A DNA stretch of 64,000 bases, taken from Candidatus Latescibacterota bacterium (GTDB lineage: Bacteria > Latescibacterota > UBA2968 > GCA-2709665). How positions within the stretch are numbered: position 1 is the stretch's first letter; every line of letters starts with the position of its first letter. Shown here in pieces: positions 49,383-55,797 of the stretch. The stretch lies in the NCBI GenBank assembly GCA_963667175.2, contig CAXXXF010000004.1, forward strand, positions 288,001-352,000, given 5' to 3'. The position numbers and the translations under genes are program-made. The notes beneath the pieces were generated by a model. That model saw nothing but the letters and a program-made list of their open reading frames with translations. It ran no database searches and was not told where the DNA came from.

Positions 49383-50915
49383 TCACACCGGATCGGACGC
49401 GGCATTTCCATAATGCGCCTGCAAAGCCCGTTCCATAGCTTCAATTTCCTCATCCGCAAGACGGCCAAAATGGCTGGCTCGTTTTCGTGCGGAGAGGCGG
49501 CCGCTGTTCTGAATACAGAAGCGAACGAAGAGATCGATCTGTCGATCCGGCATATCGACGATGTTCTGTATCGCTTGTTTGGTCGCATCGAAGTTTTGCA
49601 GAAAGGAAAGTTCGCTGGAAAGTTCGGTATCGATCGTCCGACCGATAAATCGAAAAAGCGCCTCCGCCTGGGGGGTCAGGTCGATGTAACGGTACCAGAC
49701 AGCCGTCTCGTTGTGCACAGCCAGCCTTCCGTGCTGGTCGATCGTATATTCCACCAGCGGCATGAGATTCCGTGAGAACGCGCTTAGTGAAGCGTCATAG
49801 TCGGCTGGATTCTTCAACATGAACGCTGAAATGGGAAACATGACGCTTTCGGGAGTAAAGCCTCGACGCGCAAGAATATTGTGGATCAAAAACCGGTGGA
49901 TTCGACCGTTGCCATCCTCGAAGGGGTGAAGAAAGACGAACCCGTAGGCGATGGCGGCAGCCTGAATCACGGGCGAAACGTGACCGGATTCCATGCGGCT
50001 GTGCGCGGTCATCAGGCCTTCCATCAGGTGGGCCAGATCGTCGGGCTTCGGGGCCACAAAGTGGACATGCTCGCGCTGCCAGGCCACGCTTTGACCGACG
50101 TAATTCTGCGTGATTCGATAGTCGTTGTCGCGGAACCGGGCGTCGACGATGCGGTTCTGCAACTCGACCAGCCGTGGTTTTCGACAAAAATCCTCCTGCT
50201 CAGCCAATTGGAGCAGGGCCACGAAGCGTTCGGTTCGCGTGGAGGTCGGGTTGATTCGCTCGATTTCAAATGAGGATTTCGTTTCCTTTGTATACAGATA
50301 ACTCAATGCGCGCTTCAACAATTCAGGCGAGTAGCGAGAGACCACTTGCCGGCATCTTCTGTGCAACCGGTCCATTTCCACGTTGCGAAGGGTGTCGGTA
50401 CGACGAATTGTCGGACAGAATCGCGGTTCACCCGGCAGGTTGTCATTGATCCGTTGACGGCGGACCGGCCGACCCGGCTTCACTGTAAAATAGGCATCCG
50501 GATTGAGGAGGTGGATGTAGTTTCCACGCTTCAGGTCAACCAGCGGGAGTGTCCTTCCGGTCAGGAATTCATACAGAAACCACAATCGTCTGGCATACTT
50601 GCCGGTCGGTTTGGAGCGGAAGTATTCGAGAAGCTTGTCCTCTGGAATTGCCTCGAACAACGCGGCGAGAATCGCGAGATTTGTGCCGTCGTATTTGAGA
50701 GCGAATCTCAGATGGTCGACCGGTGCGTTTCCGGGCCAGTAACGGGGTGGATAGACTTCCGTTACGGCGTCTCCATGGTAATCGATCCTGCGGGTTCCGC
50801 TTGTGGCCACGAGGGACGTGTGCCAATTCGGAATGACGTCAAGATCGTACTGCTCTATCAGAGCGGCATACCCCGCCAGTCTGTGTTTTACTTGAATTCG
50901 ATCTTGTTCAGCCAT
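49383..50915 (-). CDS. Fic family protein
   Basis: HPFEDGNGRIHR; ETKSSFEIE. Confidence 0.93.
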   Translation of the reverse strand: MAEQDRIQVKHRLAGYAALIEQYDLDVIPNWHTSLVATSGTRRIDYHGDAVTEVYPPRYWPGNAPVDHLRFALKYDGTNLAILAALFEAIPEDKLLEYFRSKPTGKYARRLWFLYEFLTGRTLPLVDLKRGNYIHLLNPDAYFTVKPGRPVRRQRINDNLPGEPRFCPTIRRTDTLRNVEMDRLHRRCRQVVSRYSPELLKRALSYLYTKETKSSFEIERINPTSTRTERFVALLQLAEQEDFCRKPRLVELQNRIVDARFRDNDYRITQNYVGQSVAWQREHVHFVAPKPDDLAHLMEGLMTAHSRMESGHVSPVIQAAAIAYGFVFLHPFEDGNGRIHRFLIHNILARRGFTPESVMFPISAFMLKNPADYDASLSAFSRNLMPLVEYTIDQHGRLAVHNETAVWYRYIDLTPQAEALFRFIGRTIDTELSSELSFLQNFDATKQAIQNIVDMPDRQIDLFVRFCIQNSGRLSARKRASHFGRLADEEIEAMERALQAHYGNAASDPV

Positions 50916-51019
50916 TGTGCATCCTGGGAAAAGAGTTATCGCCTGAGAATTATAGTTATATTTTGACAAAATTCAAGAAAAACAGTTATGTCCCTTTGAT
51001 TCAAAAAAACCAGAACTCA

Positions 51020-52998
51020 GTAGAGTCGAGATGTGGCGCGGTGGTTTAGGAGTGGCCTATCTGTTTCCGCCCCTTTCGTCTGGCGGTGCCTCAATAGCCG
51101 CTCCGTGCTCCGTTTCCACGTCCCGCTCATCGAACCGGACGTGCGGATTTACCGCATCCGGCTCTCGGACAAGGAGTCATGCGTTCGCCCACGGAAGGTT
51201 GCGCGCCTGTACTTCCAGCCGGGTCAGGCCCAACGTGTTGTAGAGGACCTGGTCATGGAAGCGTGACCTTCCCTTTCCCGGTATTCGGTACTTGTTGCAC
51301 AACCACCAGCGGAGCCGTTTCCGGGTGTGGCTGTCCACACTCCGATAGGCTTTGCTGGCCAGACCAAGACGGAAGTAGTTGCCCCACCCTGCCAGCTTTC
51401 GGTTCAGGTGGGCAATCCGTTCTTGATGGTCTTTCAGCAACCACCGTCGCGCCGTTGCCTCGCTGATGGCCCGGCAGATGTGCCGGATGGCCTTCTTTGA
51501 CGGGCGCGTGCCGATATAGGCCTTTCCCGTCTTTGGCGAGTAACAGCGGCCGATGGTGTAGCCCAGAAAGTCAAATCGTCCTTCCGGGAGCGTGCATATG
51601 CCCGTCTTCTGCTCGTTCACCGTCAACTTAAGCGCTTTCATGATGGATCGCATCGCACGCATCGCTTCTTCTGCACTGCCGCGACAGCAGATCACAAAAT
51701 CATCCGCGTAGTTGACAATATGAGCCTCCAGACGTTGCTGATGTCCCCGAAATTTCCATCCCAGAATGAACCGCCGCATATACAGGTTCGCCAACAGCGG
51801 GGAGATTGGGGCGCCTTGCGGTGTCCCCCTTCCCTGATCCTTGTTCGGCGTCGCTCGACGTTTGCGGCCCCGCTTGTCGGTCTCCTCAATCGGCGCGGTC
51901 AGCCACAGCTTGATCAGGCGCAGCATTCGCCCGTCACTGATGCGTCGCGCCACCGATTTCATCAACTCGGCATGCGGGATCGTGTCGAAGTAGCCGCTCA
52001 AGTCGGCGTCGATCACCTGCGTATGGCCGCGGCTCACCAGACTGTGAACCGCATTGATGGCGTCGTGCGCACTCCGTTTCGGGCGATACGCATACTGTTC
52101 CGCTGGCAGGTCCGCCTCAAAGATCGGCTCCAAGACCAGCATCGCCGCGGTTTGCACCACCCGATCCTTCACCGTCGGGATGCCCAACGGCCTTTGCTTC
52201 CCGTTCGGCTTGGGGATATATACCCGACGGATCGGAGACACCCGATACGATTTGCTCCTTACGGCTTCCGACAGTTCGCCTAACCACCGCTTTTGCCCGT
52301 ATGACTCGATATCCGCAAACGTCTCGCCGTCCACGCCCGCCGCGCCGCCGTTGGCCTTGCAGCAGCGGTACGCATAAAGCAGGATGTCCTCGCGATACAC
52401 TTTGTCATACAGCGCGTAGAATCGGTAGCCGGGCGATTCCTTCGCTTTGGCATGCAACGTCTTCCGCAACTTCCGAACCTTCTCCGGAGGTCTTAGGCTC
52501 ATACCAATCTCCAGGCTCTCGCTCCTTTGACGTTGCCCTTGAACCAAGGCCCCTTCCCTCCACCGGCATTACCCGGCTTCCCGGGTACTACGGGCCTCTC
52601 CGCCACCCCACACGGCCCGGCCTGACCCTCACGGGCGTCCGGTTGGTGTCTATACACCACCGAGGGGGGCTTCCCGTGTTGCGTCGGAACTCCTTGTATA
52701 CGTGCCTTCGCCATTACCCCGGCGGGACCGTTGGATGCGCGCGTTGCTCTCTTTTTCCAACGACGGCGGCCTTCCCCGATCCATGGGCGGGTCGGCTCCC
52801 GCATTACCTTTTTCGAGGCCTGCTCAGCGTTCACTCACGTTTCGGCCCGCATACTCGCCAGGTCGCCTTGCGACCCTCTACACCGGAGGCTTCGGAGATG
52901 TCGTTGCCTACGTCCCCGCTCCGGTTGCTACCGACCGCAGCAACATTTGTCGGGTGGGACTCTCACCCACTGAAGTTCCGCGCCTTTTCACGGCGCAC
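51020..52998 (-). mobile_element. Complete group II intron
   Basis: 5' GTGCG at 52998; domain V GAGCCGGATGCGG..CGTCCGGTTC; 3' end CTCTAC at 51020; EBS1 loop CATGGAT (52779-85) complementary to 5' exon ATCCATG. Confidence 0.93.
51177..52547 (-). CDS. ltrA: Group II intron reverse transcriptase/maturase, no endonuclease domain
   Basis: AAGVDG, RPLGIP, DADLSGYFD, GTPQGAPISPLLAN, YADD, FDFLG, GWGNYF. Confidence 0.95.
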   Translation of the reverse strand: MVQGQRQRSESLEIGMSLRPPEKVRKLRKTLHAKAKESPGYRFYALYDKVYREDILLYAYRCCKANGGAAGVDGETFADIESYGQKRWLGELSEAVRSKSYRVSPIRRVYIPKPNGKQRPLGIPTVKDRVVQTAAMLVLEPIFEADLPAEQYAYRPKRSAHDAINAVHSLVSRGHTQVIDADLSGYFDTIPHAELMKSVARRISDGRMLRLIKLWLTAPIEETDKRGRKRRATPNKDQGRGTPQGAPISPLLANLYMRRFILGWKFRGHQQRLEAHIVNYADDFVICCRGSAEEAMRAMRSIMKALKLTVNEQKTGICTLPEGRFDFLGYTIGRCYSPKTGKAYIGTRPSKKAIRHICRAISEATARRWLLKDHQERIAHLNRKLAGWGNYFRLGLASKAYRSVDSHTRKRLRWWLCNKYRIPGKGRSRFHDQVLYNTLGLTRLEVQARNLPWANA

Positions 52999-53575
52999 CA
53001 TGGATAAACAGGATGGACAGGATGAAAACCGAAAAGCAAGACAAGCTCACGAAAAAACGAACATCAGAAACTACGAAACACGCGAAACACACGAAAAAAA
53101 CACGAAGAAAACCGATCAGGATTTGCAGGATTAGCCTTGATTCGTAGTTCTTCGGGAACGATAATTCAAATAAACGCAGGCGAATAAAGGCGATTTGACG
53201 TCCGATTTCCACGAACCTTCAGGTCACTGGACGTGAACGGAATAAACGTCGTTCCGGACGACCTTTTTGGGTCCGTTTCGCAACGATACCCTTTGTGTCT
53301 TTTGTGCTTTTTGTGGCTAATTTAACGGTTGTCTTTTTTCGAATTGAGGTTAGAACCCAGGAGCAGGATGAAAACCGAAAAGCAAGACAAGCTCACGAAA
53401 AAACGAACATCAGAAACTACGAAACACGCGAAAAAAACACGAAGAAAACCGATCAGGATTTACAGGATTTGCAGGATTAGAAACCAGGAGCAGGATAAAA
53501 ACCAATAAGCGCGACAAAGGCGCCAGAAAACGAACATCAGAAACTACGAAACACGCGAAACACACGAAAGATCCG
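52999..53575. repeat. Degenerate A-rich tandem repeat (CAGGATG / CACGAAA / CAGGATTT modules)
   Basis: Units at ~52999-53133, 53359-53480, 53486-53570; further copies at 55254-55386 and reversed near 41410-41480 and 41620-41658. Confidence 0.8.
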
Positions 53576-53639
53576 TGGCTGACCCCATAAATTCACAAAA
53601 CAGTTGTCATGCCCCTTTGGGGCACCCATAATGATGAAA

Positions 53640-53858
53640 ATGGTTGCGTCAACAGACTTGTGTGGTAGGTTGTTGGCCACCATAACCCTTGGCTGGTCGA
53701 AGGTCGTTTTGTAGATGGTGCTATGAGCCTGAAAAACAGTTGGACCTGGGTATCTGGAGGTATCCATTATTGTCGCCCCCTGTAAAGGGAGAGCCCGCCA
53801 AGTAGACTCTTATCCCAGCAGATACCCGACCAGCCGGATCAGACACAGGAGGCCTGCG
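53640..53858 (+). ncRNA. Candidate bridge RNA region
   Basis: Non-coding end holds AAAACAGTTG (53733-42, equals 53597-606), TATCCAT (53761-67, complements 55261-67) and AAGTAGA (53800-06, equals 55248-54). Confidence 0.6.
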
Positions 53859-55199
53859 ATGCATGTCATCTACCCTTGTTGCGCTGGTTTGGATGTCCAC
53901 AAAAAGACGGTCGTTGCCTGCCGGATGAAGGCCGAAGGGTCAAAGCCGAGCCGGCGAGAGGTAAAGACCTTCTCCACAATGACCCGGCAGTTGCTGGCGT
54001 TGAGCGATTGGCTTTCTCAGTGGGGCTGCACCCACGTGGCGATGGAAAGCACCGGCGAGTATTGGAAGCCCATCTTCAACGTGCTGGAAGCCAACTTTGA
54101 AGTCTTGCTGGTCAATGCGCAGCACGTCAAACAGGTGCCAGGACGCAAGACCGATGTCCGGGATGCTGAGTGGCTGGCCGGGCTGCTGCAACACGGCTTG
54201 CTCAAAGCGAGCTTTATCCCCCCTGCCCTCCAGCGGGATTTGCGTGATCTGACGCGGTATCGCACCACATTGGTGCAGGAGCGCACCCGGGTGATCAATC
54301 GGGTGCAGAAGGCTTTGGAGGGCGCCAACATCAAGCTGTCCAGTGTGGCCAGCGATACGCTGGGCGTGTCGGGTCGGGCCATACTAAAAGGGCTCATCCA
54401 AGGCCAGGAAGATCCAGCAGCGTTAGCGGAGTTGGCCAAGGGCCGCTTGCGCAACAAGAAGGCCGACCTAGAGCAGGCGCTGACCGGCTTTTTCCGACCC
54501 CACCATCGCTTTTTGTTGAGCCACTTGCTGGTGCATCTGGACTTTCTGGAAACACAACTTTCTCAGCTGTCCGACCAGATCGCTCAACACATTGAGGCGA
54601 TGGGTGTGCCCCCAAAAGACCCGCAGCCTCCTTCGGGCGGTTCGCCCAAGCCTGCGCAGTCACCAACCGCCGCCTCGTCCAAGCCTGCGCAAGCTTCTCG
54701 GCTCCTTCCCAATCAGGCCATGGCCTTGTGGGATACGATTCCTGGCGTCAACCAGACCGTGGCCGAGGTTATGGTGGCCGAAATGGGCGTGGATATGGGC
54801 CGCTTCCCCACCCACCGGCATCTGGCCTCCTGGGTCGGCTTAGCGCCTGGAAACCATGAAAGCGCAGGGAAACGTCAATCGGGGCGCACCACCAAAGGCA
54901 ATCCTGCGTTGCGTCTTGCCCTCGTCCAGGCGGCCTGGGCGGCCTCGCGCACCAAAGACACTTATCTGTCCGCTCTCTATCGTCGGTTGGCCGCACGACG
55001 GGGCAAGAAACGCGCCTTGGTGGCAGTGGCTCATTCCATTCTCACAGCCGCCTATCATATGGCCTGTCACACACAACCCTATCAAGATCCGGGCAGCAAC
55101 TATTTCGATCAGCGCAAGAAACACGACGTTGTCTCTCGGCTCTCCCATCGCCTGGAAAAGTTGGGGTACAACGTTGCGCTTACGCTACAAGCTGCTTAA
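53859..55199 (+). CDS. IS110 family transposase/recombinase
   Basis: GLDVHK, AMESTG, RKTDVRDA (DEDD); GLAPGNHESAGK, KGNPALR. Confidence 0.95.
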   Translation: MHVIYPCCAGLDVHKKTVVACRMKAEGSKPSRREVKTFSTMTRQLLALSDWLSQWGCTHVAMESTGEYWKPIFNVLEANFEVLLVNAQHVKQVPGRKTDVRDAEWLAGLLQHGLLKASFIPPALQRDLRDLTRYRTTLVQERTRVINRVQKALEGANIKLSSVASDTLGVSGRAILKGLIQGQEDPAALAELAKGRLRNKKADLEQALTGFFRPHHRFLLSHLLVHLDFLETQLSQLSDQIAQHIEAMGVPPKDPQPPSGGSPKPAQSPTAASSKPAQASRLLPNQAMALWDTIPGVNQTVAEVMVAEMGVDMGRFPTHRHLASWVGLAPGNHESAGKRQSGRTTKGNPALRLALVQAAWAASRTKDTYLSALYRRLAARRGKKRALVAVAHSILTAAYHMACHTQPYQDPGSNYFDQRKKHDVVSRLSHRLEKLGYNVALTLQAA

Positions 55200-55797
55200 A
55201 TAAAAGAAAAACAACAGGATTCTTCGAAATCTGAAAGGTTATTTTCTAAGTAGAACTTATATGGATAGACGGGATGGACAGGATGAAAACCAAGAGGCAC
55301 GAAAAATGAACATCGAAAACTACGAAATACGCGAAAAAACACGAGGAAAACCGATCAGGATTTACAGGATTAGAAACCAGGAGCAGGGCAAATGCTCACT
55401 CTTGCAGGCAACAGCGATGAGTCCATCCACCCTGAAACCCCAACGTTTGCCGGCCAGACCGATTTCGGATTCTTAATGGATTTCGTTACAATCTCCACTG
55501 ATGTTATTGAAAATCAACCGATTATATAACAAACCCACCGGTTTTCATGACTATTTCGGGCTAAACACATCTGCGCGGACACATCGCCGGCATGACGCGA
55601 TGCGGGCAGACAGGAATGTCTGCCCGCCTGCCGCCTGCCTGCGCCGCTGCGCTTCCCGCGGCAGGCAGGCGCCCGGCCTCCCGCTACGGAGACAATCGAC
55701 CGGCTTGTCATTCTGAGCGGAGCGAAGAGCCTCCCGTCTTCTTCTCGATTGTCCGTAACGCAACAACAGGGAATCGGCAACTGTCAATCCCTACACT

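Follow-up and report, generated by a model that had tools for sequence, protein, structure and literature searches.

We analysed a 64,000-nucleotide stretch of DNA from Candidatus Latescibacterota bacterium (GenBank assembly GCA_963667175.2, contig CAXXXF010000004.1; C4:288001-352000 of a 5.52-Mb draft genome in 18 contigs), hereafter the window, in which a group II intron and an IS110-family insertion sequence (IS) lie side by side, each interrupting a copy of the same dispersed repeat (Table 1). An earlier note on this DNA, made from the sequence alone, had read the two insertions as the convergence of two unrelated RNA-guided elements on one word of the repeat, used by both as a safe harbour. 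Our data show that the repeat is a miniature inverted-repeat transposable element (MITE), and that most genomic copies of the intron subfamily found here occupy it at one fixed position. We consider it likely that the intron homes to the MITE by RNA pairing, and that IS110 is a separate element that came to lie there incidentally, by way of a different short word.

The two elements, their ends and the flanking sequences quoted in the earlier note are all present as written; the pair had been placed at 50998..55290, and we corrected these bounds to 51020-52998 for the intron and 53604-55253 for IS110. When both elements were removed by script, the healed sites aligned with 45 of 53 columns identical, and both matched a repeat profile that we derived from 40 empty copies (nhmmer, E 6e-18 and 8e-18), which bears out the proposal that the two sites are copies of one repeat. 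At the IS110 site, the repeat is restored when 53583..53603 is joined to 55254 onward. The intron site falls at profile position 126/127 and the IS110 right end about six positions beyond it, and at the IS110 site the profile match takes in 6 nt of the IS110 right end before it stops at position 138. The distance in register between the two insertions is 6 bp, or 6-8 bp when the 2-bp AG core of IS110 is counted, in keeping with the "about 7 bp" first reported.

Table 1. Features of the intron and IS110 insertions and of the repeat copies around them (window coordinates).
Feature	Position	Strand	Basis or remark
3' exon side of repeat copy 1, the MITE 3' inverted end (TGAGTTCTGG...GAATCAAAGGG)	50992..51019	-	Agrees with the consensus of the repeat 3' end; end point approximate
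Group II intron, 1979 nt, subfamily A, full length	51020..52998	-	Rfam covariance models, conserved ends
Intron-encoded reverse transcriptase/maturase, open reading frame (ORF) as listed	51177..52547	-	Probable ATG at 52502
Exon-binding site 3 (EBS3; intron nt 285, A)	52714..52714	-	Pairs with T at +1 of the 3' exon
Exon-binding site 1 (EBS1) loop CAUGGAU (intron nt 214-220)	52779..52785	-	Pairs with ATCCATG at -7..-1 of the 5' exon
5' exon side of repeat copy 1	52999..53096	-	nhmmer, profile positions 29-126, E 6e-18; stops exactly at the intron
Intron-binding site 1 (IBS1) ATCCATG in copy 1 (plus strand CATGGAT)	52999-53005	-	CCT at -14..-12 also present
Extra partial repeat copy between the two elements	53488..53574	-	nhmmer, profile positions 24-110, E 1e-13
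3' inverted end of MITE copy 2 (IS110 left flank), finishing in the left target AAAAC and the core AG	53583..53603	-	
IS110-family insertion sequence, 1650 bp, without inverted ends, AG at both junctions	53604..55253	+	Copies at nine genome sites share the ends
Non-coding left end, 255 nt, presumed bridge RNA gene	53604..53858	+	Placed upstream of the recombinase as in IS110-group elements
AAAACAGTTG, sense copy of the left junction (left target, core, first 3 nt of the element); candidate left target guide	53733..53742	+	
TATCCAT, segment that the earlier note paired with ATGGAT	53761..53767	+	Judged a chance match
CAAGTAG, near-copy of right end and core (TAAGTAG); candidate left donor guide	53799..53805	+	
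IS110 recombinase, 446 aa	53859..55199	+	Pfam, NF033542
Body and 5' inverted end of MITE copy 2	55254..55560	-	nhmmer; 5' module E 2e-31

The repeat profile has 108 matches in the genome, and the conserved part of the repeat extends upstream into further modules. Eight complete copies measure 305-440 bp; their inverted ends are imperfect, each about 22 bp long (CCTGAATTATTCATGAAAACCGG and CCGTTTCATGAATTAATGGGG), and in five or six of the eight a 4-bp flanking duplication is clear. Because of its many short copies, its inverted ends and these 4-bp duplications, we classify the repeat as a MITE; it is a non-autonomous transposon of about 305-440 bp, present in roughly 100 copies. Its matches are depleted in long open frames: 22% fall within frames of at least 300 aa, compared with 76% of random positions, by a crude stop-to-stop measure. 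Profile matches also reveal that the segment 52999-55560 of the window is a small array of MITE copies and fragments.

The window intron matches the Rfam models RF02003 (domains D1-D4; 102 bits, gathering threshold 49) and RF00029 (domains DV/DVI; 41.6 bits, gathering threshold 40), the matching domain I-IV model being of the D1D4-4 type. It begins with 5' GTGCG and finishes with 3' CTCTAC, and the pattern GTGCG...CTAC is common to 26 copies. Its ORF matches Pfam RVT_1 (2.7e-36) and GIIM (3e-13) as well as TIGR04416 (360 bits, cut-off 300), its nearest solved chain is the GsI-IIC reverse transcriptase (1e-53), and none of its domain hits is an endonuclease domain. The element therefore combines what defines a bacterial group II intron: a ribozyme core, a reverse transcriptase with a maturase (X) domain, an EBS1-IBS1 pairing, and an EBS3 that pairs with position +1.

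We detected 28 intron 5' ends in the genome, 26 of them with a matching 3' end, and these fall into three subfamilies. Subfamily A, to which the window intron belongs, comprises 12 copies, four of full length (1978-1979 nt, three of them 100% identical and one 99%, with the same ends) and eight that lack the ORF (758 or 762 nt). Nine of the 12 sit at the identical MITE position (profile 126/127); the other three lie outside the repeat, within long open frames, where they adjoin (G/A)TCCATG. Among 30 other genomes searched, 15 contain this lineage, and it occurs in 13 of 14 genomes of the genus. In one such relative (G007) all seven copies with the A loop follow ...ATCCTGTNNATCCATG in the same repeat context, and in a second (G009) two of three are in that context. 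The extended target CCT-N4-ATCCATG^T (^, insertion point) is found unoccupied at 43 genomic sites, and the repeat accounts for 39 of these. With some 40 intact and mostly intergenic landing sites on offer, the MITE serves as a harbour for the intron, and to this extent the safe-harbour idea of the earlier note stands.

An alignment of intron domain I revealed a single loop that varies among the subfamilies in step with their targets. The loop reads CAUGGAU in subfamily A, whose target ends in ATCCATG; UGAAUUU in subfamily B (6 copies), whose target ends in (T)ATTCA; and UGUCAGC in subfamily C (8 copies), whose target ends in GCTGACA. Among the relatives, other loops pair with other targets, for example UUGCGAA with TTCGCAA in seven copies. 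We measured covariation column by column over 64 copies, 55 of them unique, and found that the best partners of exon positions -3, -4, -5 and -7 are intron nt 216, 217, 218 and 220 (pairs formed in 0.80-0.96 of the unique copies, with four to five pair types), and that the best partner of exon position +1 is intron nt 285 (0.94 of the unique copies, five pair types). This covariation identifies nt 214-220 as EBS1 and nt 285 as EBS3; the latter is A, G and T in subfamilies A, B and C, facing T, C/T and A at +1. The window intron forms seven Watson-Crick EBS1-IBS1 pairs, so the earlier note had correctly picked out CAUGGAU as an EBS1 that reads ATCCATG. A search for EBS2 by complementarity in single sequences gave only scattered and inconsistent matches.

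The sister subfamilies also use dispersed repeats. Four of the six subfamily B introns (1976 nt) lie within the 5' inverted end of the same MITE (C6:57241, C4:143201, C18:72602 and C18:322694), at sites 139-222 nt upstream of the subfamily A site and in the same orientation. Subfamily C consists of eight ORF-less introns (761 nt, one of 1059 nt) with U as EBS3, all in a third repeat, ...AAATGGAAGCTGACA^ACTGCTCTTCCTGACCACTGGCCACTG... (C15:278630, C15:564309, C6:490181, C4:159754, C17:97188, C13:106092, C16:418665 and C13:175517); no full-length copy with EBS1 UGUCAGC was seen in the genome. In the window, MITE copy 2 retains an empty, degenerate subfamily A site, ATCCATA^TAAGTT, at 55259/55260, and an empty, degenerate subfamily B site, AATAGTCA^TGAAAACC, at 55547/55548.

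Sponge-metagenome runs also yielded contigs that contain stretches of the window. A contig from run X5 follows the unique sequence 50800-51006 and then continues from 52999 onward, with 12 letters replacing 51007-51019. This contig is an intron-less allele of this very locus, of the kind that the earlier note had suggested looking for, and by linking unique sequence to 52999 it places the intron site here. A second contig from the same run spans 53597-55253. Joints in public contigs that fall within the repeat array (53038-53516, 53557-55347 and others) could not be assigned to a locus, and we did not use them. The MITE copy that holds the intron is directly followed, on its own strand, by an ORF with a Fic/DOC domain (49383-50969, minus strand), so the MITE and its intron occupy the upstream region of this ORF.

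The second element encodes a recombinase that matches Pfam DEDD_Tnp_IS110 (PF01548, 7e-34) and Transposase_20 (PF02371, 8e-24), and NF033542, "IS110 family RNA-guided transposase" (294 bits, cut-off 140). Its DEDD/RuvC-like and Tnp recombinase, its lack of terminal inverted repeats, its shared core (AG at both junctions wherever the flanks of a copy are known) and its ability to stand with ends abutting in tandem are those of the IS110 family. The tandem is at C2:256751-260050, where two copies follow one another directly, head to tail, either as a tandem insertion or through insertion of a dimer; the junction, TAAGTAG followed directly by TTGTCATG, gives the donor junction and the AG core. 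A contig from run X3 also leads from the IS110 right end into the left end, although 11 letters of other sequence intervene. Two further genomic copies are rearranged (C4:83523-85296 and C15:871916-873310), one with its last ~160 bp duplicated and the other with an internal deletion of ~250 bp. A DNA search of 18 relatives did not find the full element, and at the protein level IS110 relatives appeared in three of 52 other genomes of the order, at only 33-36% identity. When metagenome contigs were scanned for the exact IS110 right-end word, the one match was AT-rich and due to chance, unrelated to the element.

The insertion census separates this element from the intron. Nine IS110 sites are present in the genome, seven with a readable left flank and nine with a right flank. 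All seven left flanks end in A(A/T)ACAG, and the right flanks read AAC in three cases, CTTCT in three and something else in three. By the repeat profile, only the window copy lies in the MITE (one of nine), and two of the nine lie in a different repeat, ...GCAGGCAGGCGCGAAGACCGCTGGGGATTTTAAGACAG^CTTCT. The first 44 nt of IS110 recur in relatives as the ends of related small elements. Of 20 such loci retrieved, 19 have a left flank that finishes in (A/G)CAG, and most of the right flanks that could be found read CTTCT. None of 19 such related ends is in the MITE, and at least 10 of the 19 are in one other repeat, ...CTCGGGAACTCACCGGTAATTTTAAAACAG^CTTCT or TTTTAAAACAG^CTTCT. A scan of genome contigs added one related right end (the last 20 nt and a similar upstream stretch, in Candidatus Latescibacterota record L093), which has an unrelated flank and lies outside the MITE. 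The repeat favoured in the genus, the second dispersed repeat of this genome, consists of a GC-rich hairpin followed by ...GATTTTAAGACAG^CTTCT or CTCGGGAACTCACCGGTAATTTTAAAACAG^CTTCT; it is the commonest IS110-type site in the genus (C9:16678, C13:129689, C14:152049, C16:474710, C16:52306 and others here, L072-L090 in relatives). The earlier note had expected other insertions of both elements to be enriched in the repeat, and this proved right for the intron (9/12 in this genome, 7/7 and 2/3 in the two relatives) but not for IS110 (1/9 and 0/19).

IS110-group elements carry a non-coding bridge RNA region upstream of the recombinase (PMC11208160). For IS621, both guides of the left side (target and donor) are described as pairing with the bottom strand (PMC11208160, PMC11208158), and such guides therefore read as the top strand of the left target or donor plus the core. 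Where the guides of a bridge RNA would be expected, the left end of the window element holds AAAACAGUUG and CAAGUAG (as RNA). The 10-mer AAAACAGTTG occurs at the left junction and again 136 nt inside IS110, with CAAGTAG 66 nt after this target word. We compared four elements in all: three related elements (33-36% protein identity) each have a word of their own (TTAGGAGCA, AAGAAAACGT and TTATCAGCATG) at the left junction and again 120-139 nt inside, and two of the three have a right-junction word 63-73 nt after the target word. These positions are consistent with the published sense rule for left guides (PMC11208160), and make the two words of the window element candidate guides. A Rfam search with E up to 1 gave no family matching the IS110 left end.

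Taken together, these data support a model in which the RNA-protein particle of the intron would recognise the end of the MITE at a fixed position, 33 nt from the MITE 3' end. It would read the DNA by pairing EBS1 with ATCCATG (-7..-1) and the A of EBS3 with T (+1), and probably by a short EBS2 that pairs with CCT (-14..-12). The intron would then reverse-splice into the DNA and be copied by its endonuclease-less reverse transcriptase, steps that we propose from what is usual in its family; recognition itself is what our data show. The ORF-less derivatives of 758/762 nt have the same EBS1 and are presumably mobilised in trans by the protein of the full copies, and the sister subfamilies, with changed EBS1 and EBS3, colonise other repeats, including the other end of the same MITE.

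IS110, in the same model, would be a separate and currently active bridge-recombinase element that excises to a circle, of which the tandem junction would be the sole trace here. Its left-end RNA would match the left target and AG core through AAAACAG(UUG), and its own right end and AG core through CAAGUAG, and the element would insert where A(A/T)AC-AG stands before a right flank that it tolerates (AAC, CTTCT or others). The copy of the MITE at 53583-53603/55254-55560 belongs to the small number of variants with an inverted end that reads AAAACAG^AAC, six bases from the intron site. The two elements would look like neighbours in register because this variant copy carries AAAACAG^AAC there, and since IS110 recognises a different short word from the one read by the intron, no convergence is involved. 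That the intron homes to the MITE by RNA pairing, with IS110 nearby for reasons of its own, is the explanation that we think probably correct.

Several observations weigh against this explanation. The intron-less allele depends on a single contig, with 24 letters on its shorter side. The proposed EBS2, at nt 191-193, is possible but weak: nt 191-192 pair with -12/-13 in 0.89-0.91 of copies with three pair types, and the pairing fails in subfamily C. For IS110, the left flank at C15:873310 (GTTCACAAAACAG) resembles that in the window (ATTCACAAAACAG), so occupancy of the MITE could be counted as two of nine; that site has no profile match and an unrelated right flank. The right target guide (RTG) and right donor guide (RDG), which would be antisense to AG+AAC or AG+CTTCT, gave no convincing match by eye in the left end. 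Minimum-energy folds of the left end are no better than those of shuffled sequences, whether whole or trimmed (z -1.2 and -1.3). TATCCAT, the segment that the earlier note had matched to the repeat, sits in the interval that separates the two candidate guide words, about where one would look for a right target guide, so it is the insertion census and not the anatomy that excludes a role for it. Finally, five small elements with IS110 ends hold the left module of the MITE as their interior. They show some historical contact between IS110 and the MITE, and an incidental encounter leaves this unexplained.

These five elements, of ~160-205 bp, run from an IS110 left end (TTGTCATGCC...) to an IS110-like right end (..TTCCAAGTAG) and are flanked by A(A/G)ACAG (C3:37041-37230, C16:134525-134332, C15:819011-818834, C1:5878-5676 and C10:54160-53998). 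Their sequences suggest non-autonomous derivatives of IS110, or chimeras, and the candidate donor guide CCAAGUAG fits their right end better than it fits that of the full IS110.

Among the alternatives, the one that holds up best, although we regard it as unlikely, is that IS110 has a real but secondary preference for the MITE, the variant end AAAACAG^AAC being a proper target and the MITE a minor harbour. Three of the nine insertions have AAC as the right flank after AAAACAG, one more copy has a similar left flank, and the small chimeric elements join IS110 ends to a MITE interior. The word AAAACAGAAC has 11 empty sites in the genome, two of them in the MITE, and with the three occupied sites this makes 14, of which three are in the MITE; by simple arithmetic, three insertions distributed over these 14 sites would have about an even chance of placing at least one in the MITE. 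These numbers are too small to establish any enrichment. Moreover, the two MITE copies with the exact word are empty, related ends in relatives avoid the MITE altogether (0/19), and the MITE consensus at the IS110 site reads AAACGGAAC rather than AAACAGAAC, so that only variant copies qualify as a target. The IS110 target word, AAAAC-AG followed by AAC or CTTCT, is carried by a minority of repeat copies.

We also find it rather improbable that the last 35 bp of the MITE, together with its other inverted end, act as a docking strip for several tenants, with two intron specificities (subfamily A at 33 nt from the 3' end, subfamily B within the 5' inverted end) and an IS110 bridge RNA that reads an adjacent, non-overlapping word. 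If it were true, the repeat would spread landing sites while its guests retune their guides, and RNA-guided elements would be co-evolving with a repeat derived from a DNA transposon; the small elements with MITE interior would then suggest repeated recombination of the IS110 lineage with the MITE.

The proposal of the earlier note, that an RNA guide brings each element to the same ATGGAT word and that the two converged on the repeat as a common safe harbour, now appears highly improbable. It drew on real features: the elements do lie in copies of one repeat, 6 bp apart in register, EBS1 does read ATCCATG, and TATCCAT does exist in the IS110 left end, flanked by the candidate guide words, and is the complement of ATGGATA at +8..+14 to the right of IS110. 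A match of this kind is at chance level. When the non-coding ends were shuffled, they gave a mean of 1.74 seven-base matches to the 52-nt site, and at least one match in 73% of 2000 shuffles, and ATGGAT was absent within 40 nt from all eight other IS110 right flanks. In addition, the position +8..+14 falls outside the target window of the IS621 bridge RNA, given as 11-14 bp (PMC11208160, PMC11208158). IS110 insertions are not enriched in the repeat, neither in this genome nor among the related ends of relatives, so the MITE is a harbour for the intron and not for IS110, and these counts largely refute the convergence claim. Mis-joining of repeats and multi-copy elements during assembly, which would mean that the insertions are not truly at this locus, is scarcely credible: the elements and the repeat are indeed multi-copy, the draft has 18 contigs and public contigs break at element ends, but the X5 contig runs from unique sequence into 52999, and all copies of each element have clean, identical ends across which the repeat is restored.

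With homing of the intron and incidental insertion of IS110 as the preferred account, neither element departs from the known kind to which it belongs. The intron RmInt1 uses an IS as its homing target. RmInt1-type introns of Sinorhizobium meliloti encode a protein without DNA-binding and endonuclease domains, and related introns adapt to colonise one genome (PMC4615759, PMC4075523). The intron described here is similar in that no endonuclease domain was found in its protein and its harbour is itself a mobile element; it differs in that this harbour is the non-coding end of a MITE and not a transposase gene. In Thermosynechococcus elongatus, an intron lineage diverged into families with different targets, and ORF-less forms arose by deletion of the ORF (Mohr, Ghanem & Lambowitz 2010, PMC2882425). 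Here, likewise, one genome contains three families and the genus several more, and ORF-less copies of 758-762 nt occur. Unlike in T. elongatus, nearly all targets are dispersed repeats, the end of a MITE among them, and the host is a bacterium from a sponge metagenome.

The closest known precedent for a target shared by the two element classes is found in integrons, where group IIC-attC introns and IS1111-attC elements are both specific for attC, near one end and in fixed orientation (Léon & Roy 2010, PMC3001079, citing Tetu & Holmes 2008). In contrast to that pair, only the intron is repeat-specific here (9/12), and IS110, at 1/9 and 0/19, does not share its target. The window intron, with a 7-bp EBS1 plus EBS3, is compared with the IIC-attC introns by its use of targets, not by class.

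Tobes and Pareja are said to have reported, in 2006, IS110-family elements that target repetitive extragenic palindromic (REP) sequences or other conserved intergenic repeats. Targeting of REP or conserved intergenic repeats by IS110-family elements is also the subject of a preprint on ISPpu10 (10.64898/2026.03.19.712850). The IS110-type ends of this genus resemble such elements, as they lie mostly at ...CTCGGGAACTCACCGGTAATTTTAAAACAG^CTTCT (at least 10 of 19), with two of the nine genome copies in a similar repeat; the parallel stops at the identity of the preferred repeat, which is not the MITE of the intron. Like IS621 (Durrant et al. 2024, PMC11208160; Hiraizumi et al. 2024, PMC11208158), the window IS110 has DEDD and Tnp domains, a long non-coding left end, a 2-bp core, a tandem that joins right end to left end, and left-end words in the sense of left target or donor plus core. 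Unlike IS621, its core is AG instead of CT, its right target flank is variable, and right-hand guides were not found. The sense words here also run 1-3 nt past the core into the partner DNA, and no such run-on is described for IS621 in the portions of the two papers drawn on here (PMC11208160, PMC11208158).

True convergence would have added a second natural example beside integron attC, and the census does not bear this out. The case also carries a caution: short complementary words between the ends of an element and its flank are to be expected by chance, and copies should be counted before a pairing is believed. What the IS110 element offers is an AG-core member of its family whose left-hand guide words may be read from its own junctions. 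For the intron, we see a natural series in which one lineage shifts EBS1 and EBS3 between repeat families, and this series is a possible test set for rules of target prediction.

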